DNA of 64,000 bases from a phage, in the sequence record PQ327946.1. One strand, 5' to 3'. The notes under the pieces are model-generated. The model did no database searches and was not told the origin of the DNA. It worked only from the letters and a program-made list of their open reading frames with translations. Positions 4,444 through 63,720 of this stretch are shown here, in pieces. Both the position numbers and the translations under genes were made by a program. How positions within the stretch are numbered: position 1 is the stretch's first letter; each line of letters begins with the position of its first letter.

Positions 4444-4472
4444 TTTATTTCTCCAATTTGGTTGTTTTGTTT

Positions 4473-4511: not shown

Positions 4512-4531
4512 TGTTTTGTGAGAAAAAATGC

Positions 4532-6246: not shown

Positions 6247-6298
6247 TTTAATTACCTCAAAAATAAATTAAAGGCCCAACTTAATAGGCCTGTATAAA

Positions 6299-6745: not shown

Positions 6746-6788
6746 GCTAATTTCCTCAATTGATTAATGTTTTTGTAATCCATGAGAG

Positions 6789-6818
6789 CATTATACTCTG
6801 CTCTCAAGAGTTTGTACA
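6789..6818 (-). promoter_or_regulatory. Early promoter cassette (repeat family ttatactctgctctcaagagtttgta)
   Basis: Minus strand gives TTGTACAAAC..CTCTTGAGAGCAGAG-TATAAT; a second copy is at 51228-51257. Confidence 0.4.
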
Positions 6819-6821
6819 ATT

Positions 6822-7022
6822 TTATTCGGCTATATCAGAACGTTCAAAAAGCTCTTCAACAGTTAAACATTCAGTGTCATCTTCAATAAAGAATCGAGTC
6901 CAACACGTCGGGGCGATACAGTTATGGGTTTGTCCGGCGATAGAAGCTACACGAATAAGCTGCTGACCATTATTCAGAACAAATTTTTCACCAATTTCAA
7001 CATCTTTAAAAAGCTTAGCCAT
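6822..7022 (-). CDS. Hypothetical protein (66 aa)
   Basis: Small ORF in the ndd-denB interval. Confidence 0.35.
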   Translation of the reverse strand: MAKLFKDVEIGEKFVLNNGQQLIRVASIAGQTHNCIAPTCWTRFFIEDDTECLTVEELFERSDIAE

Positions 7023-7035
7023 TTTGTGTTCCTCA

Positions 7036-7075
7036 TGTTTCAGTAGGACTACTATACCATAATCCTACCTTGTTG
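7036..7075 (-). promoter_or_regulatory. Early promoter cassette with dyad (taggactactata..aatccta + gtaaac)
   Basis: Repeat family gataggactactata; -35 GTTTAC on the minus strand. Confidence 0.4.
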
Positions 7076-7272
7076 TAAACAATTAAATTACATTAAAATA
7101 TGTTAAAGCCAACCATGATCCAGTGAACGAACATGCGATGTAAAAACCCGTATCACAAATTGTTCTTAGTACAATAATAAGTGCATTTTTCATAAGTACC
7201 TCAATACAATTGAAAATACTATACAAATCATAGGGATACTAAGCAACCATATTCCGATCCACATTTTAGAGC

Positions 7273-7550: not shown

Positions 7551-7590
7551 TTAGATAGGACTACTATATCATAGTCCTACTTAGTTGTAA
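7551..7590 (-). promoter_or_regulatory. Early promoter: GTTTAC-N18-TATAGT with 8-bp inverted repeat TAGGACTA/TAGTCCTA flanking the -10
   Basis: Read directly on the minus strand: gtGTTTACaactaagTAGGACTAtgaTATAGTAGTCCTAtc. Confidence 0.45.
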
Positions 7591-7604
7591 ACACTTTTAT
7601 GAAA

Positions 7605-11598: not shown

Positions 11599-11610
11599 AT
11601 TTTTCTCTCA

Positions 11611-11811
11611 TCACAAGTTACGTTTAAAAATTTCTGCTACTTCAAGAAGTTCTTCTTTAGTAGCTGTATCGGTTTGTATTTTATATCGAATTTCCTTAAA
11701 GCGTTCTTTAAAGGCTTCAGCTGATTCGATATCAAAAAATCTTTGGATAAGCCGGAATTCCCGGAGCACAGCTTTATCAAAAAGTTCCAAGTCCACGTTA
11801 TATGTTCTCAT
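11611..11811 (-). CDS. Hypothetical protein rIIA.1-like (66 aa)
   Basis: Small ORF directly upstream of rIIA as in T4. Confidence 0.5.
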   Translation of the reverse strand: MRTYNVDLELFDKAVLREFRLIQRFFDIESAEAFKERFKEIRYKIQTDTATKEELLEVAEIFKRNL

Positions 11812-11903
11812 AATATTCTCTTCAGTAGATTCCTAGGGCACTATTACTAAAGACCATATAATCTATCATCTTATGTGTAATAGTGCCTCAGGCTATTCAG
11901 GAT

Positions 11904-13004
11904 TTATGCTGTGAAGATTTTATCCCACATCGCAACAACTGCATCTCGGTTATACTTCTTCCATACTGCTTCAGCACGTTTAACTCGAGCTTCGTATGTA
12001 TCAGTGAATTCTAATACAGCTTTTGTGTAAAGCGCAACTACTTCTTTCTTAGGAGTAGAGGAATCAATTTCTACACGCACAGTATCTGGGTCGTATTCAA
12101 ATGTCGCATGAGGATAATCCTTAAAAACTAACTGGATTACAGGGACACCTTTAGAGATGGCTTCAATAGAACTATTCTCTACTGTACCTGTGTCAGGACA
12201 AGTATTAATAAGTGCTTTAGCTGTTTTAAGACGTTCCATGATTTCACTGTGTGGAGCATCAATAATAACAGGATATTTAGCTGGTGGTGCCCATTTGCTT
12301 GGACAGTATCCTACACCATTTTCGCCTAGTGCTTTAATTGCTTCAAGAGCAACATCAGTGCGACGCATTTTAGTGTCATAACGTTGTGCACTAATAATCA
12401 GATCAGTCGCCGGAAGAACTTCAGGTTTCTCATTCAAACAAATAACCGGATAATCTTCGGCTTCAAACAACGGATTTGCTCGCCAATAATCATAATCAAT
12501 TTTGTCAGTCAGACCTGAAGTCATATAACAATATTTGCGTTCAAATTCACGGAAGGCTTTAGTAGGAGCATAACTCTTACCACCATTCTTATGAATTTGA
12601 ATAGTCTGGTCCCAAATTTGAACAATGCCACGAGATACTGGTTCAAATGGTGTTGCCATAAAATTCTTATGAACTTTAGAGAGACCTGCGTCTTTAATTG
12701 CCTGAACGGTTAGTTTAGTCGGTTCCATAGTAACAACAAAATCGTATTCATGGATGCCGGCTAGTTCAACAATCTTACGAGCCATAGTATAACTCATACC
12801 TAGACTGAATTTAGTCAGATGACCAACAGGATGGTGTGTAACTTTCCAGTCACCAAACGTGTCATTATCAAAGCCGATATAATCAATATCAGCACCGATG
12901 GACACAAGATATTTCAACACATTTAAATGTACTGCTTCAAGGCCACCTTGTACACGGTCAGGATTAAATGGGACTGCGCGAGATGGGATAAACATAACTT
13001 TCAT
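11904..13004 (-). CDS. GT-B fold glycosyltransferase, candidate DNA (5-hmC) glycosyl/arabinosyl transferase
   Basis: 366 aa; C-terminal motif VENSSIEAISKGVPVIQ resembles the GT4/GT-B donor-binding signature; sits between rIIA.1 and 39 where T4 has gene 60. Confidence 0.55.
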   Translation of the reverse strand: MKVMFIPSRAVPFNPDRVQGGLEAVHLNVLKYLVSIGADIDYIGFDNDTFGDWKVTHHPVGHLTKFSLGMSYTMARKIVELAGIHEYDFVVTMEPTKLTVQAIKDAGLSKVHKNFMATPFEPVSRGIVQIWDQTIQIHKNGGKSYAPTKAFREFERKYCYMTSGLTDKIDYDYWRANPLFEAEDYPVICLNEKPEVLPATDLIISAQRYDTKMRRTDVALEAIKALGENGVGYCPSKWAPPAKYPVIIDAPHSEIMERLKTAKALINTCPDTGTVENSSIEAISKGVPVIQLVFKDYPHATFEYDPDTVRVEIDSSTPKKEVVALYTKAVLEFTDTYEARVKRAEAVWKKYNRDAVVAMWDKIFTA

Positions 13005-13020
13005 AATTAAGCCTTATTAA

Positions 13021-13048
13021 AATTAAAATGAAGCTCCCGAAGGAGCTT
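13021..13048 (-). terminator. Terminator hairpin (AAGCUCC-UUCG-GGAGCUU) overlapping the gene 39 stop
   Basis: + strand aagctcccgaaggagctt, then a U-rich run on the minus strand. Confidence 0.5.
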
Positions 13049-14864
13049 AGGACATCCATTCTTTACGAAGTTCAGAATCATCACCCAACAACATTTCAAA
13101 GAGTTCTTTCCAATTTTCAGGAAGTTTAACTACGTCGTACACAGGGTTCTGAATCATTTCACGATATTCTGACTTTTCAAGGGAGCCCAATCCCTTGATG
13201 TATCGAATACTATGCTTAGGAAGTGTATCTTTAGCTTCTTCATACTCAGCTACAGTATAAAACCATTTTTGAGTTTTGCCAATTTGTGCAATAATTACAG
13301 GCGTTTTAACAAAGCGAATACGTCCTTGTTCAAACAATTCAGGCCAATTACTAAAGAAAGCAAGCAAAGCCGGATAAATACTTCCAAGACCGTCATGATC
13401 GGCATCGGTCATAATTGCAATATTACGATAGTTCGTATTCTCTGCCTTTTCACCAAGAATAAGACCTGTGATAGCACAGATATCGAAGAGCTCTTTGTTC
13501 TTCATCATATCAGCATATGACATACCCCAGCTATTCATCACCTTACCACGTAATGGGAATCCGCCGTGTAGTTCACGGTCACGAACATCAATGAGATAAC
13601 CAATTGCCGAATCACCTTCTGTTAAAAACAATGTCGTATCTGCATCTTTACCACATTGGTTAGCTTTAATATGCTTATGAACCTTAGCTTTAGTTGCCTT
13701 TTTAGCTGCTTTAGTTTCTGCGGCCTTTTCTGCTGCCAATTTACGAGCTAATGCTGCTTCAACAATAGGCATAATCAAGGCTTCATTTTTAAGAAGTGCC
13801 TGAGCAATTTTCTTAGCATCTAATTGGATATGATTACGAATATCACCATACGTTGACGTTAAACGTTCTTTAGTCTGAGAATCAAAACGCATGTTGCTCA
13901 TGTCTCTAATAAACATCAACAATGTGAGACATTCTTTAACACGAGCTTTAGTGACTTCAATACCCTTATATTTCTTTTTAATGCCGGGCAAAAGATGTTC
14001 GCAGATATCATCCATTACACATTCAACATGATGACCACCATTTTTAGTATGGATGTTATTCACATAAGTTAAATGACGGAAGCCGTCTGGTGATGTTGTG
14101 AATGCTATAGAGACTTTATCATTTTCTTGAATGATGTTATCTTCACCAAATTGTTTAGCAAATCGTTTAAAATTACCATCAACCTTTTTACCATTAAATG
14201 TGAACTTGATATCAGGATAAACGACTGCCAATGTTTGAAGTCGGTCTAAAGTAATATCTAAATAAATTTGAGATAAATTATGCTCTTCAAATGAAGAGAA
14301 ATCAGGAGTGAAGATTACTTTGGTGCCTTTACCTTTAGATTTCTTAGAAGACCATGATTTGTTTTCCATTCCGTTTGAACAGTTAACAGTGATTTCATTT
14401 TCGCCATCTGACGTGATGCCTGTAAACAACGTAGAGAAGATATTAGTTAAACTACTCCCGACGCCGTTCATACCACCAGTCTTGCGTTCAGAGTCATCAC
14501 CAAAGTTACCACCAGCCTTTGGAATAGTCCAGGCTGCTACAGGCCCAGGAATTTGTTCACCTGTTTGGTCGGTAACTAAACCTTGAGGAATACCACGTCC
14601 GTTATCTTCCACTGAGACTTGATTATTTTTAATTTGCACATCAATTTTATTTGCAAACTTAAATGATGTACGAATAGCTTCATCAACCGAGTTGTCAATA
14701 ATCTCATCGATTAATTTAACCAGACCAGGAACATATTCAACTTGTTGATATTTACCAAACAAAAAACGCTCGTGGGCTTCTTTGGCCGAAGAACCAATAT
14801 ACATGCCACTTCGTTTCTTAATATGTTCTACATCTGACAATACCTTAATTTCATTTTTAATCAT
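13047..14864 (-). CDS. 39: DNA topoisomerase II large subunit gp39 (GyrB-like), uninterrupted form
   Basis: 605 aa; GyrB ATPase and Toprim segments; matches the unsplit 39 of T2/T6-type phages, not the T4 39+60 split. Confidence 0.85.
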   Translation of the reverse strand: MIKNEIKVLSDVEHIKKRSGMYIGSSAKEAHERFLFGKYQQVEYVPGLVKLIDEIIDNSVDEAIRTSFKFANKIDVQIKNNQVSVEDNGRGIPQGLVTDQTGEQIPGPVAAWTIPKAGGNFGDDSERKTGGMNGVGSSLTNIFSTLFTGITSDGENEITVNCSNGMENKSWSSKKSKGKGTKVIFTPDFSSFEEHNLSQIYLDITLDRLQTLAVVYPDIKFTFNGKKVDGNFKRFAKQFGEDNIIQENDKVSIAFTTSPDGFRHLTYVNNIHTKNGGHHVECVMDDICEHLLPGIKKKYKGIEVTKARVKECLTLLMFIRDMSNMRFDSQTKERLTSTYGDIRNHIQLDAKKIAQALLKNEALIMPIVEAALARKLAAEKAAETKAAKKATKAKVHKHIKANQCGKDADTTLFLTEGDSAIGYLIDVRDRELHGGFPLRGKVMNSWGMSYADMMKNKELFDICAITGLILGEKAENTNYRNIAIMTDADHDGLGSIYPALLAFFSNWPELFEQGRIRFVKTPVIIAQIGKTQKWFYTVAEYEEAKDTLPKHSIRYIKGLGSLEKSEYREMIQNPVYDVVKLPENWKELFEMLLGDDSELRKEWMS

Positions 14865-16189: not shown

Positions 16190-16230
16190 GTTTTGATAGG
16201 TCTATAGTATCATAGACCATAGTTGTTGTA
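16190..16230 (-). promoter_or_regulatory. Early promoter cassette (gataggtctatagtatcatagacc + gtacaa)
   Basis: Repeat family with dyad GGTCTAT..ATAGACC around the -10. Confidence 0.4.
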
Positions 16231-16232
16231 CA

Positions 16233-16757
16233 TCATTTTAGCAAAATAAAATCAACTTGTTCTGCCAATGAACGTCTGAACATTAATTGACAACTTCCGA
16301 GGATGAAATCAGGCGCTTCATAGACCGCGATGTAGTATCCTTTAGCTTTCAAGAGTTCAACATCCACCTGGTCATCAAACCATGCATAAACCGCGTCAAC
16401 ACTTTCAAATCCAAAATAGAACCCTTGGGCCCAATCTTCACGCAATTCAAATGTGTGCTCAATTCTATAGTATCTTAAGATATTTTGTTCAAGGAGTTTA
16501 TCTTCATTTACTGTAGGACGATTAGGGACATTATAGTTGTCGCCGTGATGGTAGAAGTTACCTGAGATTATTCCATGTTTATCAAGGAACTCCCATGTTT
16601 CTTCAGAGTTGTCGGTGCCCGACCAACCGTATGGCGAACGAGGTTCTTTATTCCAAGAGGTTTCCCAAATTCTGACGGCTTTACCATCTTCGATAGCAAT
16701 TCCTGGTAATGATTCACGTTGAGTACAAAAACTACGTTCTACGCGGTAAACTAACAT
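16233..16757 (-). CDS. Hypothetical protein (174 aa)
   Basis: ORF. Confidence 0.5.
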   Translation of the reverse strand: MLVYRVERSFCTQRESLPGIAIEDGKAVRIWETSWNKEPRSPYGWSGTDNSEETWEFLDKHGIISGNFYHHGDNYNVPNRPTVNEDKLLEQNILRYYRIEHTFELREDWAQGFYFGFESVDAVYAWFDDQVDVELLKAKGYYIAVYEAPDFILGSCQLMFRRSLAEQVDFILLK

Positions 16758-16816: not shown

Positions 16817-17236
16817 TTATGCAAAAGATGCTGGACAATATTTTTTGATTTGGAACTCAGGAACTACCATGAACTGTCCGGCGAAAACGATGTTATAAAG
16901 CTTAACACCATCTTCTACCCAACGGTCGCTAATAAATCCGGCGATTTGCTTAGTTTTCCACGGTGTTCCATCAGTTGCCGCAGCAATAGTGAATTCATGG
17001 TCTTTTACAACTAAAACAGACCTGCACAGTTTCCATTTGAACACACGTTCTTCTGGCTCAATGAATTGGCTTTTAACATAACCAATGTTACCATCAACGT
17101 CACGAACTTTAACTTCGTTACGTCCAAAAACCGGATCACTCACAGAAAGAACTTCAACCAACTTCCCGGCAACTTTAGAGCGAGAAGCAACAGATACATA
17201 TACGTAATCACCTGTAGAGAGATTTACAATATTCAT
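16817..17236 (-). CDS. Hypothetical protein, tandem paralog A (KOW-like N-terminus)
   Basis: 139 aa; shares ..VASRSKVAGKLVEV.. and C-terminal GFISDRWVEDGVKLYNIVFAGQF with the next gene. Confidence 0.55.
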   Translation of the reverse strand: MNIVNLSTGDYVYVSVASRSKVAGKLVEVLSVSDPVFGRNEVKVRDVDGNIGYVKSQFIEPEERVFKWKLCRSVLVVKDHEFTIAAATDGTPWKTKQIAGFISDRWVEDGVKLYNIVFAGQFMVVPEFQIKKYCPASFA

Positions 17237-17245
17237 AATAATTCC

Positions 17246-17776
17246 TTAAGCTTTACGAGGAGACACATAGCGAGTGATTTCAGATTCTTTAACAACTCGG
17301 AAGTCACCTAAGAATACGATATTGTATAACTTTTCACCATCTTCAACCCATTGGTCACTAATGAAGCCACACATAGTATCAGTTTTGCTTGGATAACCGT
17401 ATTCGTCGATGTAATCAAATTCTTTATCGGTTACAAATTCAACGCCTTTACACAAGGCCCATTTGAACTGTACATTAGGCTCAGTGGATTCACATACGTA
17501 TCCATCACGTGATTCAACTTCTTCAACAGAAGAAAAGTGTGCAGGTGCAACTTCTTCGCTTGAAGCAAATTGGACTCGTATATGTTTTTCCAGGAATTTA
17601 GGACTTACGTAAGCATACTGGGCATCTTGTCCGCCAAAACTGGGCATGATTCGAACTTTAACTTCTTTAACAAGTCCCATGCCGTTAGTACGAAGCCCTG
17701 CGACTTCAACCAGACGACCTGCAGCTTTAGAACGAGAAGCAGGAGATACACGAAGGATTTCACCAATAGTAATCAT
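17246..17776 (-). CDS. Hypothetical protein, tandem paralog B
   Basis: Start moved to the ATG (MITIGEIL) with RBS; ..SPASRSKAAGRLVEV.. and GFISDQWVEDGEKLYNIVFLGDF. Confidence 0.55.
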   Translation of the reverse strand: MITIGEILRVSPASRSKAAGRLVEVAGLRTNGMGLVKEVKVRIMPSFGGQDAQYAYVSPKFLEKHIRVQFASSEEVAPAHFSSVEEVESRDGYVCESTEPNVQFKWALCKGVEFVTDKEFDYIDEYGYPSKTDTMCGFISDQWVEDGEKLYNIVFLGDFRVVKESEITRYVSPRKA

Positions 17777-17806: not shown

Positions 17807-17836
17807 ATTATACTCCAACCATCCTTGGTTGTAAAC
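17807..17836 (-). promoter_or_regulatory. Early promoter cassette GTTTAC-AACCAAGGATGGTTGGAG-TATAAT (repeat copy 1 of 3)
   Basis: + strand attatactccaaccatccttggttgtaaac. Confidence 0.5.
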
Positions 17837-27164: not shown

Positions 27165-27210
27165 AGTTGATTTGATAGGACTACTATACTATAGTCCATC
27201 TATAATGTAA
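27165..27210 (-). promoter_or_regulatory. Early promoter cassette (gataggactactatactatagtcc + gtaaac)
   Basis: Third copy of the TAGGACTA dyad promoter family. Confidence 0.4.
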
Positions 27211-27216
27211 ACAAGT

Positions 27217-27465
27217 TTATTCTTTTTCGCGAATAATAATTACTTGTTGAGGCTGCTGAGCAGATTTCTTTTCGGCAACGATAGACCAAATTAAAGTTCC
27301 AATCCAACCAACCATCGTCCAGTTAAAGAGTAAAGATACAAAGAAGATTGCTGTTGTGCTTTTTGTGCCACGAATAAGTGCGATTACCCAAGGCAACATG
27401 TAAATGATGATTGAACCAATACCTGCGATTAAAACTGCTACTGAACTAGCTACGAATAATTCCAT
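27217..27465 (-). CDS. Small integral membrane protein (82 aa)
   Basis: Two predicted hydrophobic helices. Confidence 0.5.
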   Translation of the reverse strand: MELFVASSVAVLIAGIGSIIIYMLPWVIALIRGTKSTTAIFFVSLLFNWTMVGWIGTLIWSIVAEKKSAQQPQQVIIIREKE

Positions 27466-27526
27466 GTTAATTTCCTCTTAATTTGTTATGTTTATAATAT
27501 CTTGTTTTAACTTTGGTGTAAACCAA

Positions 27527-27895
27527 TTAATTAAATTTGTTTAAACGTTCAATACACTGGACGTAGTTATTCGCGATTTGTTTCTGGGTAGGCTCTTTAC
27601 CAGTTGTTTCAACATAGCGAATGAATGCGATTTCAGTAGCCTGTAGACAATGTTCTTTAACGCGTTGTTCTTTTGATAATGCTACAGTATCAGAGTCACG
27701 ATAACGTTGAGCATGGGCATCAGCTTGAATCATTCGATTACCTACAGTAACCGGGTCTTCCACTTCAACTTTAGGTTGGTCATACTGTTTAACATTCGGA
27801 TTGTAAATCAGTTGGCCAACGTTATTAGGGATAAAGCCATGGGCACCACATCCGGTTAATCCAAATACCACTGCTAAAGCGATTAATTTTTTCAT
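27527..27895 (-). CDS. Putative lipoprotein (122 aa)
   Basis: Signal peptide with lipobox LTGC. Confidence 0.5.
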   Translation of the reverse strand: MKKLIALAVVFGLTGCGAHGFIPNNVGQLIYNPNVKQYDQPKVEVEDPVTVGNRMIQADAHAQRYRDSDTVALSKEQRVKEHCLQATEIAFIRYVETTGKEPTQKQIANNYVQCIERLNKFN

Positions 27896-28675: not shown

Positions 28676-28682
28676 TTTGTTC

Positions 28683-28715
28683 TCCAGTAGTTGATAGGTC
28701 TATAATAACACAACT
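28683..28715 (-). promoter_or_regulatory. Early promoter cassette (agttgataggtctataataacac)
   Basis: Repeat family gataggtctataata. Confidence 0.35.
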
Positions 28716-28730
28716 ACTGGAGAAGTAAAC

Positions 28731-29144
28731 TTAAAAACGTAATTTAGATACATCTGCGTTGATTTCGTTTTGGTTTGCGTCGTATGCAATTAAACGAACA
28801 GCTTTAGATGGGTCATTCAATGCATAGAAATGATGGAACATTGCTCGAACGATATCACCATTTACGAGTTCTACCTGGATAGGAGAACCTTTTTCGAGTT
28901 GGAAATGTTCATAAGCTTTGATGGTTCGCAGATAATCAAGTTTTTGATTTCCGGCTCCAACAATTTGTACGATACGTTTGCCCATGTTTTCCATACGAGA
29001 TACAATAGTTTTAGGAGCAAGAATAACGTAGGTTGCCAGCGGAGAAACTACTTCAACAGTTGTGTTTTCGGTGATTGCAGTAAAAATTGCTTGAGACATA
29101 TTCATAATGTTTTCCTCTTGGTTGGTGTAAGTACATCGTATCAT
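28731..29144 (-). CDS. Hypothetical protein (137 aa)
   Basis: ORF. Confidence 0.5.
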   Translation of the reverse strand: MIRCTYTNQEENIMNMSQAIFTAITENTTVEVVSPLATYVILAPKTIVSRMENMGKRIVQIVGAGNQKLDYLRTIKAYEHFQLEKGSPIQVELVNGDIVRAMFHHFYALNDPSKAVRLIAYDANQNEINADVSKLRF

Positions 29145-45752: not shown

Positions 45753-47437
45753 GAGGCTTTCATTACAGTAAATCGTCCAACTTTGCTCATTTGAAGATGT
45801 TGTCCATAACGTTGAGGGTCATGGTCTCTATGAGAGATAATGAACACGTTAGTATTTTGTAAACTGCCAAGGATGGTATCTATAGCCTTAACAGCCTCAG
45901 AATCAACAGCTCCATCAAAAACCTCATCAAGAATCAACGTGTTGATTTTAACACCAGAAACCTTTTCGGCAATATCTCGCCATGTAAACAACAATGCGAT
46001 ATCGATACGTGCCTTTTCACCTTGACTAAATGAAGCATAACTGAACTCTTCACGACCACGTGATTTTATAGATTCATTGAATTCTTCATCAATAGAAAAC
46101 ACGTAATCAGCTTCCATGATTTTAAGATAATGGTTAATCTGCTTGTTGAACAGAGGCACATATTTTTTAATGATAGCACCTTTAATACCAGAATCTTTTA
46201 ACATATCTGTGATAATACCACGATGGTATTTTTCAAGAACGATATCTGATTTTGTTTTAATGATTTTATCAAGTTCTTTTTGAAGCAAAGCTATCTCATC
46301 GGCATGGTCGATAAATTCTGCTGAGGCTTGTTCTATTGCGGCTTTAACTTTCTTAGCTTTATCAATAGTGGCAATCATTGCTTGTTTCTTGGTACGAATA
46401 TCAGATGCAAGGTCCTGTTTAGTCTTAACATTAGCTCTATATTCGTCCACTAGGACACTCAGATTATCTCTGTGACATGTAAGTTGCTCGAATGAGTGAT
46501 TACATTCGTGAAGCTTATCGGTAATCTTAGAGACAATAGGGTCACCCTGGTGCAACTGTGACGCACAAGTAGGACATGTGCCACCGTCATGATACATCTT
46601 AATAACTTTGTTATATGAGTCGATTTTAGATTTAATCAAGAATGCTTCTTGTCCGATCTTGTTGAATGCCTCAGTAGGGTCTTCATCAAGAACGATATTA
46701 AGTAGTCGCTCATTAGCTTCTTCGATTTCTGCTTTTAATGAACGAGCTTCTTTGGCTAGGTCATCATACATATTCTGTAGACGCGCTACATTATCACCAG
46801 ATAATTTCTTTTGACGTTCGATATTCTCGTTATAAATCTTAATTTGTTGGATAACACCATCTTTCTTGGCATCGAGAACTTGTCCCTGGGAATTAAGTTC
46901 TCGAACTTGAGACTTATTGATTTTATCCATTTCAGCGAGTGTGCCGACTTCTAAAAGGTCTTCGACAAGTTTTCTACGAGCAGGGGTGCTAAGAGCCATG
47001 AAAGGGGTATACCCTGCCGTCCCAAGCACAACGATTTGTTTAAAAGACGCGTATGACATTCCGATGCTACGTTCAAATTCTTCTTGGAAGTCACGACTGC
47101 TGGCAGATTCATCGAGACGAACACCGTCAACGGAGATTTCGAAAATATTGGGCTTTTGGCCACGTTTAATGAAGTATTTTTTACCATCGAATTCCATCCA
47201 AAGCTCAACTAAGAGCTCTTTCTTGTTCGTGCTATTAATGATTTGCCCTTTCTTAACATCACGAAATGGTTTACCGAAAAGTCCGAAAGTAATGGCTTCT
47301 AACATCGTAGATTTACCACCACCATTTTTACCAGTGATTAATGTCTTTTGGACTTTATCTAATTGGATGTCAATAGGATTCCCACCTACCGACATGATGT
47401 TTTGATAACGAACACGATTTAATTTAAATGATTTCAT
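45749..47437 (-). CDS. 46: Recombination nuclease subunit gp46 (Rad50/SbcC-like ATPase)
   Basis: 562 aa; Walker A TGKNGGGKST, coiled-coil middle, zinc hook CPTC, signature/Walker B region LILDEVFDG. Confidence 0.85.
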   Translation of the reverse strand: MKSFKLNRVRYQNIMSVGGNPIDIQLDKVQKTLITGKNGGGKSTMLEAITFGLFGKPFRDVKKGQIINSTNKKELLVELWMEFDGKKYFIKRGQKPNIFEISVDGVRLDESASSRDFQEEFERSIGMSYASFKQIVVLGTAGYTPFMALSTPARRKLVEDLLEVGTLAEMDKINKSQVRELNSQGQVLDAKKDGVIQQIKIYNENIERQKKLSGDNVARLQNMYDDLAKEARSLKAEIEEANERLLNIVLDEDPTEAFNKIGQEAFLIKSKIDSYNKVIKMYHDGGTCPTCASQLHQGDPIVSKITDKLHECNHSFEQLTCHRDNLSVLVDEYRANVKTKQDLASDIRTKKQAMIATIDKAKKVKAAIEQASAEFIDHADEIALLQKELDKIIKTKSDIVLEKYHRGIITDMLKDSGIKGAIIKKYVPLFNKQINHYLKIMEADYVFSIDEEFNESIKSRGREEFSYASFSQGEKARIDIALLFTWRDIAEKVSGVKINTLILDEVFDGAVDSEAVKAIDTILGSLQNTNVFIISHRDHDPQRYGQHLQMSKVGRFTVMKAS

Positions 47438-50861: not shown

Positions 50862-51220
50862 TTTACCGCCTTAACAATTTTCAAGTCAGCGAATTTTTTC
50901 TTACGTTGATTTTTCATACGACGGATAGTTTTTTCAGAGATTTCATGTTTCTGATAAGCTTTAGATTCAACACCAAATGCAGCAACGTCAAATTCAGAAA
51001 GAATATATTGTACTAGAATTTCGCGAATAGAATTACGTCCAATTTTCTGGTCGTGTTTTTGCATGATTTCATAAAGACGGAATTCCCACGCGTCAAGAAC
51101 TTGAGGAGTAACAATATTGCCGGATTCAAGAAGAGCAACAACTTTATCGAAAGCGAAAGAATTAACTACGTTTTTGATTTTAGTAGACATATTATTTTCC
51201 TCGGTTATTTTATTATCCAA
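50858..51220 (-). CDS. Hypothetical protein (120 aa)
   Basis: ORF with upstream promoter cassette at 51228-51257. Confidence 0.5.
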   Translation of the reverse strand: MDNKITEENNMSTKIKNVVNSFAFDKVVALLESGNIVTPQVLDAWEFRLYEIMQKHDQKIGRNSIREILVQYILSEFDVAAFGVESKAYQKHEISEKTIRRMKNQRKKKFADLKIVKAVK

Positions 51221-51227
51221 TGATAGA

Positions 51228-51257
51228 ATTATACTCTGCTCTCAAGAGTTTGTATAC
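51228..51257 (-). promoter_or_regulatory. Early promoter cassette (second copy of ttatactctgctctcaagagtttgta)
   Basis: 26/27-nt identity with 6789-6818. Confidence 0.4.
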
Positions 51258-51986: not shown

Positions 51987-52221
51987 CTTTTTTCAACTTA
52001 CGAACTTCTTTGCGGAGTTGTCGATTCATTTCATTCTTGACTTCAGAATCAACGCCTTTCATACGTTTCCATTTATCTGAGCGGAAGATGTTTTCAACCA
52101 TGTCTTTGTGGCTAACACCGTCAGGAGCTTTACGCTTACCAAAATAGTCGTAATCGCGAACTTTCAAATCTTTACGACGATATGTTTTACCCATAAGTAC
52201 CTCAGAGGTTGATTGATACAA
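51901..52221 (-). CDS. Hypothetical basic protein (106 aa)
   Basis: ORF; overlaps its neighbour. Confidence 0.35.
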   Translation of the reverse strand: MYQSTSEVLMGKTYRRKDLKVRDYDYFGKRKAPDGVSHKDMVENIFRSDKWKRMKGVDSEVKNEMNRQLRKEVRKLKKDVYSKEEYDYNTSHTEAKRKANECYRYS

Positions 52222-57609: not shown

Positions 57610-57869
57610 TTAAAATATTCTCGCAGTTGGTCAAATCCACCAATATGACTTCCGTCAGGAGCAAACACTTGAGGCATAGTCAATCCGATTTGTGATTCAC
57701 GTCCAAGCTTAACCAGAAGCTCAGCAATTTTCTCATCATCAAAAACACCTTTTTCCGGCATAACATTAATGAATTCGAATGGCTGTTTCTTAACGGTCAG
57801 CAATCGTTTCGCATTATCGCAATAAATGCATTTATGAATAGTAGAGTCATAACCATACACTTTAAACAT
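57606..57869 (-). CDS. nrdC: Thioredoxin NrdC
   Basis: Start set at ATG MFKVYGYD; CIYC active site; near-identical to remembered T4 NrdC. Confidence 0.9.
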   Translation of the reverse strand: MFKVYGYDSTIHKCIYCDNAKRLLTVKKQPFEFINVMPEKGVFDDEKIAELLVKLGRESQIGLTMPQVFAPDGSHIGGFDQLREYFK

Positions 57870-58275
57870 TATTTTTCCTTTCATCGATTAAATATGCAAT
57901 GCCAAATACAATACATGTAATAAAACCTGTGATACAGATAGAAACCAACAACACTGTACCAAAGAACCAAATCAAGTTATCTTTAGTAGTTTGTTTGATA
58001 TCCATCTCACGAATTTCTATAGCTATCGTATCACCTTTATTCAGAAGCGTATAAAACGATGGCGATACACGCCTGTCAAAAACTCGTCCTTGCTCATCTT
58101 TATAGACTGCAATAAATTCTAATTTAGAATATTTTCCTGTAGATTGGCCTGAGATTAATTCCACTACCTCCACAGGAATTACTTTAGTTTCCATGTAAGT
58201 ATTCTGGCTGTTCCAAATGAATGGAATGATGGCAAAAACTAAAGCTGCAATAAAGCAACGAAGGCTATATCTCAT
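57862..58275 (-). CDS. Membrane protein (137 aa)
   Basis: N- and C-terminal hydrophobic helices. Confidence 0.5.
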   Translation of the reverse strand: MRYSLRCFIAALVFAIIPFIWNSQNTYMETKVIPVEVVELISGQSTGKYSKLEFIAVYKDEQGRVFDRRVSPSFYTLLNKGDTIAIEIREMDIKQTTKDNLIWFFGTVLLVSICITGFITCIVFGIAYLIDERKNNV

Positions 58276-58580
58276 TATAATGTTCTCTCAAATTTGTGGA
58301 AGCATTTACGGCATTTCAATTTCAAGTTATCAGTGGTCCAGTTAACCAGTTGGACTTGGATAGTTCCACATTCCGGACATGGATGTTTTGCTGCCGATTT
58401 GGCAGCATTTTCACGTCGTTCAACCATTTTCATTATTTCGTTCCATGCCGGAGGAACGAACTCTTCTTCACCGTGGATTTTATCTCGCTGAACAAATTCA
58501 ATCTTTGAACTATCGTCAATAAACTTAACCAAGCCATGATTAGTGCTCATATCAATATCCTCTAAAAGACGTAGTTTCAT
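58275..58580 (-). CDS. Zinc-ribbon protein (101 aa)
   Basis: CPECG..CRKC motif. Confidence 0.5.
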   Translation of the reverse strand: MKLRLLEDIDMSTNHGLVKFIDDSSKIEFVQRDKIHGEEEFVPPAWNEIMKMVERRENAAKSAAKHPCPECGTIQVQLVNWTTDNLKLKCRKCFHKFERTL

Positions 58581-59524
58581 TATAACACCTCAATGGCATT
58601 TCGTAAGCCATCCGCTTTCGCATTCAGAGCTTTTAACGATTTAGTTTGTTCTGCAATCTGGGCTTCGACTTCTTTCAGACGAGATTTGAGATATTCGCGT
58701 TCTTCTCTTAAGTTATCAACTTTTTCTGCTTTAGGCTCTTTAATAGGCTTATACTCATTAGGGTTCTTCAACTTAATTTGAATGCGAGAACTGTATAACA
58801 TTGAACCGTTATCTTCGGTTTCGCTGAACATTTCAACAACATCCATAGTCTGTAATATCATACGAAGTTTATAAGACAGCGAACTAACGGTTTTGTTGCG
58901 CTTATTAATTTCTTCGGCTTTCATGGTACCGAGATTACGTGAGTAGTAATAAGGAACCTGGATATCAATTGACAATGATGCGTTACCATTACCAGTTGGT
59001 TTGAATACTGCAGTAACCCAATCTTTAACATGAACTTTATTTGTACGACCGTCGCCGCCTGTGAATAATTTACGTGAATGTTTAAAAAGCATATTCACTT
59101 GGTTATTGAATTCACAAGCAAATTTATCAGCAAATTTAGTTTCAGGAATGGTAGATAACCAATCAGCTAAATAGGTCTTTTTAACATCGTTAACAATAGT
59201 AAATTCAACCAAATCGGTTATAGATGTCGCAGTTTTAATGAATCTCGGCTTCATAAAGTTTTTAATGTTATCGCGAGCTACAGTAGAAGATAACATACGA
59301 GAACGTTTAAACCATTGAAGCAAATTGCCCAACGAATGAGAATAAGCGTTCTGTGTATCTTTACAGATATGATTTTCTTGACCTGTGTATGTACCAAAAT
59401 CGCGAAGAATACCACTTACTACAACTCGGTGTGGAACATCAAATCCTAATGAACCGGAAGCACGTTGGGCATGAACGTTAGCGATAAGACCTGCAAAATA
59501 ATCAACATAATGTGAACGTGTCAT
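58580..59524 (-). CDS. Hypothetical protein with C-terminal coiled coil (314 aa)
   Basis: Globular N-domain plus heptad-rich tail ..LREEREYLKSRLKEVEAQIAEQTKSLKALNAK.. Confidence 0.55.
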   Translation of the reverse strand: MTRSHYVDYFAGLIANVHAQRASGSLGFDVPHRVVVSGILRDFGTYTGQENHICKDTQNAYSHSLGNLLQWFKRSRMLSSTVARDNIKNFMKPRFIKTATSITDLVEFTIVNDVKKTYLADWLSTIPETKFADKFACEFNNQVNMLFKHSRKLFTGGDGRTNKVHVKDWVTAVFKPTGNGNASLSIDIQVPYYYSRNLGTMKAEEINKRNKTVSSLSYKLRMILQTMDVVEMFSETEDNGSMLYSSRIQIKLKNPNEYKPIKEPKAEKVDNLREEREYLKSRLKEVEAQIAEQTKSLKALNAKADGLRNAIEVL

Positions 59525-59552
59525 AATATTTTCCTCTCGTTAAGATAGAAAG

Positions 59553-59583
59553 ATTATACTCCAACCATCCTTGGTTGTAAACT
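59553..59583 (-). promoter_or_regulatory. Early promoter cassette GTTTAC-AACCAAGGATGGTTGGAG-TATAAT (copy 2)
   Basis: + strand attatactccaaccatccttggttgtaaac. Confidence 0.5.
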
Positions 59584-59586
59584 GAT

Positions 59587-60519
59587 TTATGATTTTAATG
59601 CATTCATTGCGTTAAAAAGTTTAGAGTACTGCAACTGGAGCTTGGTAACTACTTGTTGAGCATCACGAAGCTTAGCTTGTGCTTTGTCAAGTTCAACAGA
59701 CAGTTGGTCCACAGTGCCTTTGATTTGATTATAATAGTAATCTTCGGCAGGAAGAAGACCGTTAGAGATTTCCAGTTTAGTCGACGGTGTGCCGTTAAAC
59801 ATAACAGGTTGTGCTGAAGCTGCATTAATCTTACCGATAGTTGGGGCGACAATAATTGACGCTTCGAACGTTGCATTTTCCTTTTTAAGATTTTGATAGT
59901 ATTCAGAGTCTTTGTGCCACCATGGCGCAGGAACCTTTTTACCAATAGATACACGAGCCTGGATAGCGATATGGCCCTTATTCTTGATAGGGTTGATAAT
60001 ATTAAGCTCACGAGAATAAATTGCTTTAATCTGGTGAATATTATCACCTAGCACTTCCAACGCTTGGTGGAATACACGAGCAACGTTATCATTCTTAGGT
60101 TTATACGTAAGAGTGAACTCGTTCTCACTGATAACCATGATTTCCAACTTATCGTAAGTATATTTCAAATGTTTCATGTTAATTGCTTGAGGACGAATAC
60201 GAGAAGCAATGGCCATCAGATTGTTAAGGTTATTCCGGAACTGCTTAGCGAAATATTGTCCTTCATCGCCAATACAAAAATTACGAAGTTTCTGTTTGGC
60301 TAATAAACGGCTGAACTCACCATTTTTAATGAACTCTTTAACGGGTGTGTTAGTAACGCATTCAAATTGAGTAAACTTACGAGAAGTAATCCCATAATAT
60401 GAACAGATTTCCTCAATCTCTTCAGGAGTCTTTACAGGCATACGGATAGGATTAGGACCTGGGGTATATGCGTTCGAGGTAAATTCTTTGATAAGTTCTC
60501 TACGTGTAATAGAAGCCAT
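59587..60519 (-). CDS. Hypothetical protein with C-terminal coiled coil (310 aa)
   Basis: C-terminal ..QLSVELDKAQAKLRDAQQVVTKLQLQYSKL.. Confidence 0.55.
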   Translation of the reverse strand: MASITRRELIKEFTSNAYTPGPNPIRMPVKTPEEIEEICSYYGITSRKFTQFECVTNTPVKEFIKNGEFSRLLAKQKLRNFCIGDEGQYFAKQFRNNLNNLMAIASRIRPQAINMKHLKYTYDKLEIMVISENEFTLTYKPKNDNVARVFHQALEVLGDNIHQIKAIYSRELNIINPIKNKGHIAIQARVSIGKKVPAPWWHKDSEYYQNLKKENATFEASIIVAPTIGKINAASAQPVMFNGTPSTKLEISNGLLPAEDYYYNQIKGTVDQLSVELDKAQAKLRDAQQVVTKLQLQYSKLFNAMNALKS

Positions 60520-60544
60520 TTTATATTCCTCATGTTGAAAAATT

Positions 60545-60575
60545 TATTATACTCCAACCATCCTTGGTTGTACAT
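60545..60575 (-). promoter_or_regulatory. Early promoter cassette (copy 3, -35 variant TGTACA)
   Basis: + strand attatactccaaccatccttggttgtaca. Confidence 0.45.
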
Positions 60576-61570
60576 CATTCCTTAAGAAGTTTTACTACTT
60601 GAATAAGATTAGCTCGTTCTGTTTTATTTTTACCGTTTAAGCCTGCTAATCGTGAGATTTCATCATCAGTCTGTTGAATAGTTACATTAAGTTCGTTAAT
60701 CAAAGCTTCAAAGTATTTGATTTGCTCAGCATGTTTTGATTCAAATTTTTGAACCGGAATAACGTCTTGGTTTAGTTCATCAATAAGGTCTTTAAGAGCA
60801 TCTTCTTGGTTGATATCATATTCAACTTCTTTTATTTCTTCAACGAGCTCGTCTTTATATCTAACGTCTTTTAGTCCTGGTGCTGGTCCTGAAATCTCTT
60901 CTTTAAGAGTACAAACATATCCAATACGGTATCCAATACCGTCTCGCTTGATAACAACTTCGTCAATAAATCCACAATGTTTAAGACCGGAGCCGATTAG
61001 GTCAAAATATCCTTGACGTCGTCCTTCAAACGTTACACGAACTACTAAGACAGTTTTACCTGCAACCTTTTGAAGCTCACATTTATAAAAGTCTGTTGAA
61101 CCTGAATAACGTGGATGAGTTTTAAAGTTCATCTGACGATCTAGGCCCATTTGTAAGCGTGCTGATACGGCCATAAAACGTGTTTGGTTCTCGTTAAGAT
61201 GAGCAACAATCCATTTCAAAGGCATTTTACACTGTTCACGACCGAACAAATCAGTACGTCCTAGATTACGCAGGATGTTGTTAGAGTTAATCATCGACAG
61301 AACGTTAAGTTTATTCAGCGCGCTGAAGATTCCATCGGCCATTGATTTTCCGTAACCTTTACACGCTTTAATAAGCGCTCGCGGTAGATTAGTATAGATT
61401 TCAGACGGCATATGAAAATCAAATTTACTAGTCAGTAATTGATGAACTTGGATAGCAATTTGCTCATAATTAAGTGCTCTGCGATCATTATGGTCTTTAA
61501 ACCACACTTTAATCTGTGAAGCACATAAACCGTTAATTTCATGTTTTACCGCATCAGATGTAATGCTCAT
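60575..61570 (-). CDS. Hypothetical protein with C-terminal coiled coil (331 aa)
   Basis: C-terminal ..QKFESKHAEQIKYFEALINELNVTIQQTDDEISRL.. Confidence 0.55.
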   Translation of the reverse strand: MSITSDAVKHEINGLCASQIKVWFKDHNDRRALNYEQIAIQVHQLLTSKFDFHMPSEIYTNLPRALIKACKGYGKSMADGIFSALNKLNVLSMINSNNILRNLGRTDLFGREQCKMPLKWIVAHLNENQTRFMAVSARLQMGLDRQMNFKTHPRYSGSTDFYKCELQKVAGKTVLVVRVTFEGRRQGYFDLIGSGLKHCGFIDEVVIKRDGIGYRIGYVCTLKEEISGPAPGLKDVRYKDELVEEIKEVEYDINQEDALKDLIDELNQDVIPVQKFESKHAEQIKYFEALINELNVTIQQTDDEISRLAGLNGKNKTERANLIQVVKLLKE

Positions 61571-61632
61571 AACTATTTCCTCAGATTGAATTGGAACTCA
61601 AAACCATTATAACCCGTCCTTGGGTAAAGCGT

Positions 61633-62160
61633 TTATGCGTGAACCGTCTTTAAACGTTCTTCAAATTTCCGAAGAGTACTAATACGTTCTGCTTTCTGTT
61701 TTGTATAGTTTGCAATACGTTCTGAAGTGAGAGCGTATCGTTCGTTTACTGTTTCTTTCATGAAGTCAGGGATTTCACGAGAAGCTTTAATTTCATCAAA
61801 CTTATCGAGTACTGCCTGGTCTTCAGCGATTAAATTTTCGTACATCTCGATATCTTTCTTGATAAACTCGATATCTTCCTGGGTTACTTTGGATAAACGA
61901 GATGCTTTATCCTTTTTGTACTGCTCGTTAGTTTCACGAGACCAGAATAATGTACGTTTTTTGTTAGTGTTTTTGTAGACTTCCACAATTCCAACTGAAT
62001 CGATGATAGCAATCCAATTCCAGCGAGATTTGAAAATCTGACCTCCGTCCACGGTAATCTCGTTACCATAAGCAACGTCATTAAAGAACTTGCTTTGTGC
62101 TTCAGATTTAAATTTACCGTCGTTATAATTTACCAGGTTGAAAATATCTTTAGCGTTCAT
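61633..62160 (-). CDS. Hypothetical protein (175 aa)
   Basis: GGAGG RBS and promoter cassette upstream. Confidence 0.55.
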   Translation of the reverse strand: MNAKDIFNLVNYNDGKFKSEAQSKFFNDVAYGNEITVDGGQIFKSRWNWIAIIDSVGIVEVYKNTNKKRTLFWSRETNEQYKKDKASRLSKVTQEDIEFIKKDIEMYENLIAEDQAVLDKFDEIKASREIPDFMKETVNERYALTSERIANYTKQKAERISTLRKFEERLKTVHA

Positions 62161-62169
62161 GTTTTACCT

Positions 62170-62215
62170 CCAGTAGTTGATAGGTCTATAATAACATAAC
62201 CATAGACCTTGTAAA
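62170..62215 (-). promoter_or_regulatory. Early promoter GTTTAC-N17-TATTAT-AGACCTATC-..GGAGG
   Basis: Minus strand GTTTACaaggtctatggttatgtTATTATagacctatcaactactGGAGGtaaaacATG. Confidence 0.5.
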
Positions 62216-62218
62216 CAA

Positions 62219-62506
62219 CTAAAAGAAACTTTTTTCGGTATTTTTTCCACTGAACCAAACCGATTTCGGAATTTTCTGTAATTTTTCAGATTTAAGTTTC
62301 TCTTCCTGTTCTTTCTTATATGCATCCTTGTCGTACTGGAACAACTCTAAGGCATTCTTTTGTAGACGGTCTAAGGTAATTAAGGCTTTAGTTTTTCCTT
62401 TCAAGGAAGAGTCCTGGCGAACCTCCTCGCTATATTGCATCGTAGAACTAACCATACGATGAGCATAGAGTTCTACTGCGGCTTTAATTTTTTGCATAAA
62501 ATCCAT
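62219..62506 (-). CDS. Hypothetical protein (95 aa)
   Basis: ORF. Confidence 0.45.
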   Translation of the reverse strand: MDFMQKIKAAVELYAHRMVSSTMQYSEEVRQDSSLKGKTKALITLDRLQKNALELFQYDKDAYKKEQEEKLKSEKLQKIPKSVWFSGKNTEKSFF

Positions 62507-62644: not shown

Positions 62645-63646
62645 TTATTTCAGTAAAGTTACTTCAGAGATTTCCTCCCAACCATCTTTATCAGTTGAAA
62701 TAAAATCTGCTACGTAAAGAGCCGTACGTAATGATACATTGCGAAGACGAGATACGTTAGCCTTCATCCAGGACAATGCTTTATACGTTTCTGCATCCGT
62801 CAGACCACGTTTCTGCATCATGTCAGTAGATAATATTACATCTTCAACTCGAACCATAATCTCTTCATTAGAGTGTACTCCAAGGTCGAGATACACTGAA
62901 CGAGATACTAAAGCTTGAAGGTGTGGGGCAAGTTTCGAACCGCGTTCTAACTCTTTATCGATATCAACGTTTGTAATGAAAACGATAGTACCTTCAAACT
63001 CAAATTCTTTATCAATACCCTTATCATCGAGATAAGATGACGCAGTGCTCCAACAAACTTTGCGTTTATCTCCAGTATCTAATGCTGCTTTAAGAAGGTT
63101 CAAGATGTCCATATCTGAGAATACGTCAACGTCGTCGATTAAGAGAACGCTGTCTGCATCACGGTTGAGCCAAAGTTGTTCGTAAAGGCCGATACCAGAG
63201 ATTTTACCATTAATGCTTTTGTATTTGATGAAACCATTATCATTAGCGTTATTAAGTGCTTTATCCAGAGAATACGTCTTACCAATACCAGCTGCACCTG
63301 AAATAATGAGTGAACGAATTTTACCATCGATAATGCCATTCGTCATCATGTTCATTACTTTAAAGCGTTTGTTGATACGAGTTTTCATATCTTCAGTGCT
63401 TTCAACGACTGCAACTGGTGATGTCTCAACTCCTTCCATTACGATGTCTGATTTGAAGACCCATACTCCACGTTCAGAACCGTCAATCATAACGAAGATT
63501 TTACCATCACCTAAGTGGGAACATTCAGGATTAAGCTTTGCCGGGAACCAGGTCTTTGTGGCAACATAAGAACCAGAGATTTCGTTATTACGATAGATAC
63601 CTTTTTTGATTTGAACGTTGAACATTTTATTCTCCAATTTACTCAT
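62645..63646 (-). CDS. P-loop NTPase (AAA-like)
   Basis: 333 aa; Walker A ISGAAGIGKTYS, Walker B VLLIDDVDVF. Confidence 0.6.
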   Translation of the reverse strand: MSKLENKMFNVQIKKGIYRNNEISGSYVATKTWFPAKLNPECSHLGDGKIFVMIDGSERGVWVFKSDIVMEGVETSPVAVVESTEDMKTRINKRFKVMNMMTNGIIDGKIRSLIISGAAGIGKTYSLDKALNNANDNGFIKYKSINGKISGIGLYEQLWLNRDADSVLLIDDVDVFSDMDILNLLKAALDTGDKRKVCWSTASSYLDDKGIDKEFEFEGTIVFITNVDIDKELERGSKLAPHLQALVSRSVYLDLGVHSNEEIMVRVEDVILSTDMMQKRGLTDAETYKALSWMKANVSRLRNVSLRTALYVADFISTDKDGWEEISEVTLLK

Positions 63647-63651
63647 TTCGT

Positions 63652-63690
63652 TTCGATAGGTCTATAATAACATATCCTAAAAGCATGTAC
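63652..63690 (-). promoter_or_regulatory. Early promoter cassette (ttcgataggtctataataacat..gtacac)
   Basis: gataggtctataata family. Confidence 0.35.
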
Positions 63691-63720
63691 ACCACTTTTT
63701 AAAAATATTTTATCCCCCTA

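Follow-up and report, generated by a model that had tools for sequence, protein, structure and literature searches.

Within a 64,000-nucleotide stretch of phage DNA (sequence record PQ327946.1; this whole stretch is hereafter the window), three consecutive genes on the minus strand, here called A, B and C, each lie behind a short element in which a promoter encloses or adjoins a hairpin. A reading made from the letters of the DNA alone (the sequence-only reading) had described three consecutive genes of about 310-330 amino acids, and open reading frames (ORFs) of 314, 310 and 331 amino acids are present, each preceded by a GAGG Shine-Dalgarno sequence. The ~4 kb around them are 96-98% identical (~97% at the DNA level) to many Mosigvirus genomes, which assigns the window to an RB69/JS09-like T-even phage of this genus. 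Between 54 and 64 kb every gene of the window lies on the minus strand, in the T4 order nrdD - 49 - pin - nrdC - nrdC.x - nrdC.10, and A, B and C sit in the hyperplastic nrdC-to-mobD region.

Gene A is 55% identical to T4 NrdC.3 over its full length and matches the phrog_1435 profile at E 4.4e-101 (residues 1-314, a full-length match); its synteny agrees with the nrdC.3 annotation in JS09 and RB69. Gene B matches the Pfam family DUF7235 at E 3e-110 (368.8 bits where the cut-off is 30, covering residues 15-309 and the whole profile, positions 1-307 of 307), a family to which T4 NrdC.5 (E 5e-126, 420.6 bits) and its JS10 homologue (418.9 bits) belong. Its identity to T4 NrdC.5 is ~24% overall, ~20% in the head and ~37% in the tail. 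B is annotated nrdC.5 in RB69 and JS09, and its slot between nrdC.6 and nrdC.3/.4 is kept in the window, T4, Sf23, JS10, VR20, JS09 and moha. Gene C gives a full-length match to phrog_2257 (E 8.5e-127), is 29-34% identical to the NrdC.6 proteins of T4 and Sf23 (BLASTP E 7e-33 against Sf23) and is 100% identical to JS09_089, annotated nrdC.6. DUF7235 was the sole match in a Pfam search of the three proteins, and an NCBIfam search returned no match for any of them. Taken together, these comparisons identify A, B and C as the Mosigvirus versions of T4 nrdC.3, nrdC.5 and nrdC.6.

The N-terminal domains of the three proteins had been described as unrelated heads built on a common scaffold. Profile comparisons, a bridging protein from a Yersinia phage and two collinear motifs suggest instead that the heads are remote homologues and that the three genes are diverged tandem paralogues of one family. 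PHROG 1435 already unites nrdC.3 and nrdC.4, and BLASTP of JS10 NrdC.4 against Sf23 NrdC.3 gives 5e-8 over 300 amino acids. Local hhalign comparison returned 97% for nrdC.3 with nrdC.4 and 90% for nrdC.4 with nrdC.5; with the last 50 residues removed, so that heads alone were compared, a joint profile of nrdC.3 and nrdC.4 still matched nrdC.5 at 77% (E 2e-5, 168 columns). The bridge to nrdC.6 is provided by gp94 of Yersinia phage fHe-Yen9-01, which matches A at E 4e-7 (residues 138-291 against 139-314) and C at E 8e-5 (76-158 against 52-145), the two matches having the segment LNMESNRLIAQGARLCSGNDR in common. The best tblastn match of gp94 outside its own genus, across the whole phage collection, is Mosigvirus nrdC.3. 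When gp94 was combined with nrdC.3 and nrdC.4, the resulting profile matched nrdC.6 at 92% (E 7e-7; heads only, 80%, E 1.5e-5) and nrdC.5 at 96% (E 7e-9). Reversed and column-shuffled control targets scored 12-21 against the observed 43-68, and the heads-only null scores were at most 20 against an observed ~43. In an alignment of 15 sequences, two collinear motif blocks appear in all families (Table 1). A and B are thus very probably paralogues, and C probably belongs to the same family; the evidence that nrdC.3,.4,.5 and.6 may be diverged paralogues of a single family whose tail is conserved is new here.

Table 1 Coordinates of the genes, motifs, tails, promoter elements and look-alike genes (positions are those of the window unless another phage is named)
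Feature	Position	Strand	Residues or length	Details
Gene A	58580-59524	-	314 amino acids	Orthologue of T4 nrdC.3; PHROG 1435; precomputed Pfam PF26897
Gene B	59587-60519	-	310 amino acids	NrdC.5-family protein; Pfam DUF7235 / PF23882; PHROG 2351
Gene C	60575-61570	-	331 amino acids	Orthologue of T4 nrdC.6; PHROG 2257; precomputed Pfam PF26899
Motif block 1 in A				FKRSRMLSSTVARDNIKNF
Motif block 1 in B				EFSRLLAKQKLRNF
Motif block 1 in C				LNKLNVLSMINSNNILRNL
Head motif 2 in A	59045-59122	-	135-160	FACEFNNQVNMLFKHSRKLFTGGDGR; alignment, bridging BLASTP
Head motif 2 in B	60196-60252	-	90-108	FAKQFRNNLNNLMAIASRI; alignment
Head motif 2 in C	61136-61213	-	120-145	WIVAHLNENQTRFMAVSARLQMGLDR; alignment, bridging BLASTP
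Tail of A	58583-58732	-	265-314	Heptad-repeat amphipathic helix; heptad score, AlphaFold2 helix, invariant columns
Tail of B	59590-59739	-	261-310	Heptad-repeat amphipathic helix; heptad score, 10/15 a/d positions hydrophobic
Tail of C	60578-60742	-	277-331	Helical, interrupted heptads, conserved motif IQQxDDEIxRLxGL; AlphaFold2, alignment
PeSL-type cassette upstream of A	59553-59582	-		Exact copy; -35 TTTACA 59576-59581; -10 TATAAT 59553-59558
PeSL-type cassette upstream of B	60546-60575	-		2 mismatches, both in the -35 (TGTACA); hairpin 60555-60570; -10 TATAAT
Variant upstream of C	61606-61631	-		Mot-box-like CGCTTTA 61625-61631; hairpin ACCC-AAGGAC-GGGT 61612-61625; TATAAT 61606-61611
Third cassette copy	17807-17836	-		Exact; upstream of MotB-like gene 17246-17776, 41.7 kb away
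Further cassette repeats	7039-7088, 7551-7600, 16192-16241, 27171-27220, 27482-27531
Further cassette repeats	28682-28745, 62168-62231, 4444-4524, 63625-63705, 6770-6816, 51208-51254
Look-alike, Klebsiella JD18 (L012)	11154-12128
Look-alike, Enterobacter EnA02 (L013)	11489-12547
Look-alike, Acinetobacter Konradin (L014)	11785-12816
Look-alikes, Yersinia fHe-Yen9-01 (L015)	5961-6902 and 12947-13825

Structural models of A and C were generated using AlphaFold2, with a pLDDT (predicted local distance difference test) of 53.6 for A (from an alignment of 30 sequences) and 49.8 for C (5 sequences). Poor as they are, the two models agree in the order of their elements: a helical region of ~150 residues, a beta-beta(-beta)-alpha-beta-beta segment, a disordered linker and a C-terminal helix. 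A Foldseek search against BFVD recovered their own orthologues and low-scoring matches, including cross-matches to E5EYP0 and to Serratia phage CBH8 at template-modelling (TM) scores of 0.15-0.25, a result explained by the poor quality of the models. Searching the PDB by sequence and by profile, with B, the A and C families and the superfamily as a whole as queries, produced no significant match; weak, non-significant matches of the A-family and superfamily profiles fell on the tail only, mostly to coiled-coil or long-helix proteins (tetherin, geminin, the PKG zipper).

Each protein had also been credited with a C-terminal coiled coil of about 60 residues. Taking hydrophobic heptad periodicity over at least four heptads in a proline-free helix as the definition, we scored the last ~50 residues with a heptad score of our own and compared the result with 100 shuffles. 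A (11.0, residues 265-314) and B (11.25, residues 262-310) both exceeded all 100 shuffles, whose maximum was 10.25 in each case; C, at 10.0 against a 95th percentile of 9.75 and a maximum of 10.75, is borderline, its tail being broken by a G-L-N-G-K turn. Hydrophobic residues occupy 11/15 (A), 10/15 (B) and 9/16 (C) of the a/d positions in a single register. The AlphaFold2 model of A contains one continuous helix (residues 273-313, pLDDT 70-82) and that of C broken helices (256-330). The claim therefore holds as a heptad helix in A and B and is marginal in C, with a span of ~45-55 residues rather than 60. Tails are better conserved than heads: the last 45 residues outdo the head in every orthologous family, with 29/45 invariant columns in the tail against 53/269 in the head among 30 gene A orthologues, and, when the gene C family is compared between genera, an identity of 58% for the tail but 22-28% for the head. 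Since tails are more conserved than heads, and since the invariant tail columns of gene A include non-core heptad positions, the tail may form an interface that is both specific and conserved, not a generic zipper. The ending L-x-x-A-h-x-x-L-K is common to tails of different families.

The genes had further been said to share a 30-nucleotide promoter cassette, placed directly before two of them and in variant form before the third. On the coding strand this sequence is GTTTACAACCAAGGATGGTTGGAGTATAAT, of which no copies are expected by chance. An exact copy precedes A and a copy with two mismatches precedes B, overlapping the stop codon of C, as claimed; the variant before C has only the hairpin core and TATAAT in common with them (CAAGGA(C)G...TATAAT). 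Upstream of A, the 17-nucleotide spacer between TTTACA and TATAAT holds the hairpin CAACCA-AGGA-TGGTTG (59562-59577), and this promoter, at 11/12 positions, is the top sigma-70 match within 56-64 kb; TGTACA-17-TATAAT upstream of B matches at 10/12. Upstream of C there is no -35; CGCTTTA stands 13 nucleotides before TATAAT. A Mot box is expected to read TGCTT about 12 nucleotides before the -10, and CGCTTTA at its distance of 13 departs from this at the first base of the box. The same Mot-box/hairpin arrangement is found upstream of T4 nrdC.7 and of JS10 and VR20 nrdC.6.

These cassettes have a known counterpart. PeSL elements, in which a sigma-70-like early promoter is combined with a stem-loop, occur in multiple copies in hyperplastic regions and have been linked to gene shuffling (Arbiol 2010, PMC2839356); the promoters of the T4/PST elements follow the consensus TTTACW-N17-TAYWAT, and a variant with a Mot box is called PmSL (Comeau 2014, PMC4122927). 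The PeSL type further includes action of the stem-loop as terminator or attenuator and recombination of the cassettes into mini-circles. By its composition, the element upstream of C looks like PmSL, with a putative variant of the Mot box. In the window we find an early promoter, a stem-loop inside the element, repetition (three copies and one variant), an intergenic position next to a Shine-Dalgarno sequence and ATG, and insertions or deletions between relatives (an insertion in moha; gene content that differs among T4, JS10 and the window). The resemblance lies in a stem-loop between -35 and -10 or overlapping the -10, followed by Shine-Dalgarno sequence and ATG, and in the link with gene gain and loss. 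The differences are that the phages in which PeSLs were described, RB49/phi1, T4/PST and nt-1/KVP40, do not include RB69-like ones, and that the hairpin in the window has an invariant CAAGGAUG core, covarying outer pairs, low stability and no U-tract.

The hairpin itself, a 6-bp stem with a 4-nucleotide loop inside the promoter spacer, was compared across the upstream regions of homologous genes in T4, Sf23, JS10, VR20, JS09 and moha. Its core, CAAGGATG, is constant, and the complementary flanks vary (AACCA/TGGTT, ATCCA/TGGAT, CCACA/TGTGG, GCCA/TGGC, TACCA/TGGTA): 93.8% of cells are paired and 4/6 pairs are altered on both sides, against 23-44% in a control in which the partners were slid. Because its G-U pairs fall on the coding strand, the hairpin probably acts in RNA or on the non-template strand. 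A role as intrinsic terminator was discarded as the primary reading: the hairpin lacks a U-tract and was not reported by a terminator scan, and its energy (-6.9 kcal/mol, z = -0.9 to -1.6) is like that of shuffled sequences. The cassette region has no match in Rfam. RegB cuts GGAG/U in early intergenic regions and needs GGA unpaired, with the fourth base constrained (2010 review); the invariant A-GGA tetraloop closed by U-A fits this requirement, and GGAG stands directly before the -10.

The sequence-only reading took the shared cassette to mark the genes as a functional set. The third copy lies before a MotB-like gene, one of two tandem MotB-like paralogues (PHROG 1671; window 16817-17236 and 17246-17776, minus strand), of which the upstream one stands behind the exact cassette; this gene is located downstream of dexA. 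The cassette is a generic, repeated early promoter module of PeSL type, and since it recurs elsewhere in T4-like genomes it is no mark that A, B and C belong together. Other repeated intergenic cassettes of 50-80 nucleotides, in several families, combine GTTTAC...TATAxT on the minus strand with an internal palindrome (Table 1); judging from such motifs, PeSL-like early-promoter modules of differing sequence types abound in the genome. At 45868-45875 (plus strand) and its flanks, a CCAAGGATGG hairpin adjoins GTAAAC (read on the minus strand as GTTTAC); this may represent a differently arranged cassette, with the stem-loop upstream of the -35. In moha (locus L006, 5975-6276), an ORF for a predicted membrane protein of 66 amino acids is inserted between nrdC.6 and nrdC.5, and the cassette that follows it carries ~20 nucleotides identical to the 3' end of nrdC.5 (AATGCATTAAAATCATAA). 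This duplicated junction of gene end and cassette matches the expectation from recombination between cassettes.

Compared with T4, the window lacks nrdC.4 and nrdC.1 (the latter reported as anti-Septu in T4). A gene for an nrdC.7-like membrane protein (57862-58275, minus strand) lies between nrdC and nrdC.2, a gene found in T4 between nrdC.6 and nrdC.8, and the nrdC.8 orthologue (61633-62160, minus strand, 175 amino acids), directly upstream of C, has its own promoter, TTTACA-16-TATTAT.

A, B and C have diverged from T4 far more than their neighbours: identity is 83% for nrdC.8 and ~78% for nrdC.10, against 55% for A, 24% for B and 29% for C. Paralogue content also differs, with four in T4, three in the window and three of different types in JS10 and VR20. 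By tblastn, the A and C types were found in ~650-740 phage records, T-even relatives only, and B (E<=0.01) in 133 records, only of the Mosigvirus type and all T-even relatives. In a collection of 5.8 billion proteins the families form 34, 19 and 4 clusters, all of which come from such phages or from assemblies that they contaminate. When a mixed A+B profile was run exhaustively against 1.84 billion representatives, it returned only the two families' own clusters and fragments, with no relatives outside T-even phages and no bridge. In Jiaodavirus, Karamvirus, Acinetobacter Lazarusvirus and Tegunavirus, proteins of 290-350 amino acids ending in heptad helices occupy the same neighbourhood (Table 1); only Yersinia gp94 can be linked to the family by sequence, and the architecture of head and heptad tail is widespread in T4-like genera even where sequence similarity is gone.

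Natural deletions also occur. In ACG-C40 (locus L010, 4805-5213), nrdC.5 is reduced to its first 71 codons and nrdC.3 to the end of its tail, and Pinarejo (locus L011, 5001-5135) retains only an unannotated remnant of the nrdC.6 tail. Tail-only tblastn matches in these two phages had made head swaps a candidate explanation, which was rejected: they are deletion remnants, not new heads on old tails. The divergence of A, B and C relative to their neighbours, the faster change of heads than of tails and these deletions were counted as the signature of an arms race. In the T4 reference (NC_000866; locus L001, 11997-12140, record positions 51996-52139), nrdC.6 encodes 275 amino acids and is frameshifted in its tail: the annotated frame ends ...EELIFLFNNMMMKFSDYLD, and the other frame continues ISIQQYDDEIFRLSGLSSKAKSEREKLIKIVDLLKS, the conserved tail seen in Sf23, so that the 70-nucleotide gap before nrdC.5 is coding in other strains. 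The HIDEN-SEQ annotation of T4 gives nrdC.6 as 891 nucleotides.

As to expression, the proposal that these are early genes holds for the T4 orthologues and fits a promoter close to the T4 early consensus. T4 nrdC.3,.4 and.6 are early at both the RNA and the protein level, and nrdC.5 is early as RNA and middle as protein (Wolfram-Schauerte 2022 supplements); nrdC.3-.6 tolerate transposon insertions on the laboratory host and are thus non-essential. As to function, a deletion mutant regains plating on cells with the SIR2 defence gene dsr1 when T4 nrdC.5 is expressed (Srikant 2022, PMC9391042), and a 2025 preprint identifies nrdC.1 as a Septu inhibitor and bas37_0203, which from size and gene order we infer to be the nrdC.8 orthologue, as a Druantia III inhibitor. 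The suggestion of anti-defence factors thus finds a published case in NrdC.5 against Dsr1, with B a full-length member of the same Pfam family, and reported inhibitors in the neighbouring genes nrdC.1 and nrdC.8; from these relatives and neighbours, anti-defence activity is the best reading for A, B and C themselves. On these grounds the region behaves like an island of anti-defence genes, and of the roles considered for the three genes this one has the best support.

At a probability of roughly 0.6, we therefore favour the view that the Mosigvirus nrdC.3,.5 and.6 genes are tandem paralogues with their own PeSL-type cassettes whose products probably act in counter-defence. They would be tandem members of one gene family confined to T4-like phages, diverged almost beyond sequence recognition and keeping a presumed common architecture: a basic helical region of ~150 residues with two motifs, a small beta-beta(-beta)-alpha-beta-beta module, a variable linker rich in proline and acidic residues, and a heptad helix of 45-55 residues. 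Each gene would be expressed right after infection from its own cassette (a sigma-70 early promoter, or the Mot-box variant for C), and, as there is no terminator between A, B and C, read-through is also likely. The products would be host-range factors that are dispensable to the phage and neutralise immune proteins of the host; the head, which evolves fast, would recognise one particular defence protein, in functional analogy with T4 NrdC.5 and the SIR2 NADase Dsr1, and the strongly conserved tail would oligomerise the protein or attach it to a conserved partner. The analysis shows what the genes are, their family membership and paralogy, the anatomy of promoter and hairpin, and the early, non-essential status of the T4 orthologues; the anti-defence activity of A, B and C, their targets and the role of the tail are inferred. 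A tentative extension, to which we give clearly less weight, would make nrdC.3-.6 one fast-diversifying array of immune antagonists, with heads tuned to different sensors and tails assembling homo- or hetero-oligomers or docking one partner, and would make the A-GGA-U hairpin loop a possible RegB site that uncouples the cassettes from upstream read-through.

Several observations weigh against counter-defence paralogy. At ~24% identity to T4 NrdC.5 (20-24% in the head), Dsr1 specificity may not transfer to B, and nrdC.3, nrdC.4 and nrdC.6 are not among the hits in the published defence screens covered. The heads are basic (isoelectric point (pI) 9.3-9.5), unlike acidic DNA-mimic inhibitors, and would equally fit nucleic-acid binding. 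nrdC.6 has no link to the other families by direct hhalign comparison lacking the bridge sequence, so far as profiles were compared, and the inclusion of C depends on one bridging sequence together with profile comparisons; the A and C models (pLDDT 54 and 50) lend no fold support. Tail hidden Markov models (HMMs) of each family do not score the tails of other families above shuffled or reversed decoys, which leaves a common origin of the tails between families unproven.

The same basic heads would suit host-takeover factors not aimed at immunity, that is, oligomeric proteins binding nucleic acids or enzymes and remodelling host RNA or DNA metabolism, for example by destabilising host mRNA. 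The early expression of the T4 orthologues would fit as well, and the T4 tk2 deletion (tk to nrdC.2, including nrdC.3-.6) abolishes the destabilisation of host transcripts, with the responsible gene unnamed as of the 2010 review; that interval, however, contains >20 other genes. A conserved host process would predict neither 20-30% identity between genera beside neighbours at ~80% nor frequent gene loss, and T4 nrdC.5, the only one of the family to have shown a phenotype, works against a defence gene, so that we consider this alternative doubtful. Less probable still is that the genes are for the most part neutral or decaying passengers of mobile PeSL cassettes, persisting through cassette shuffling with a coiled coil of no common purpose. 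Repeated cassettes are indeed associated with rearrangements between relatives, the moha junction duplication among them, and natural deletions, the frameshifted tail of the T4 reference nrdC.6 and the dispensability of the genes would all be expected; yet intact ORFs of constant length and architecture are found in at least four genera (Tequatrovirus, Mosigvirus, Dhakavirus and Gaprivervirus) and look-alikes in further ones, purifying selection on the tails is strong and extends to non-core positions, and the proteins are made in T4.

Coiled-coil tails are common among structural phage proteins, and a virion or assembly-associated function (structural, scaffolding or as injected internal proteins) would account for them. 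Homology to structural virion proteins, which would have spoken against the sequence-only reading, was found neither in Pfam nor in PHROG, NCBIfam or the PDB. The genes have early promoters, their T4 orthologues are classed among the early proteins, the early, leftward-transcribed nrdC region that contains them is distant from the morphogenesis modules, and they are dispensable for plaque formation, all of which makes this explanation very improbable.

Among known systems, counter-defence by these paralogues has its closest counterpart in T4 NrdC.5 (UniProt P39256; DUF7235), which B resembles as a full-length family member and in genomic slot, size, C-terminal heptad helix and early expression context, and from which it differs in sequence identity and in that anti-Dsr1 activity is reported for the T4 protein only. 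A is the orthologue of T4 NrdC.3 (which falls with NrdC.4 in PHROG 1435) and C that of NrdC.6 (PHROG 2257), all of them conserved hypothetical early proteins. The anti-defence clusters of T-even phages (dmd-tifA-adfA, the 'anti-TA island'; Srikant 2022) are similar in consisting of small to medium, non-essential, early, individually promoted genes of lineage-specific content, just as nrdC.1, nrdC.5 and the nrdC.8 orthologue, with their reported anti-defence roles, are among the genes of this region; they differ in that several adjacent nrdC-region genes are paralogous rather than unrelated inhibitors. The genes, the function of NrdC.5 against Dsr1 and the type of cassette are already known, and the observation, although real, is an ordinary one of largely documented T-even features, so that the gain over current knowledge is modest. 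What the present analysis adds, beside the family relationship, is covariation support for the promoter-embedded hairpin and the placing of these genes in an emerging anti-defence island. If true, tandem counter-defence paralogues with diversifying heads and a fixed tail would constitute a compact system for retargeting one scaffold to different immune proteins, and A and C, together with T4 NrdC.3, NrdC.4 and NrdC.6, would be candidate inhibitors of defence systems still without a known phage antagonist. A, B and C are likely to be host-range determinants in the Mosigvirus and Tequatrovirus phages used in therapy.

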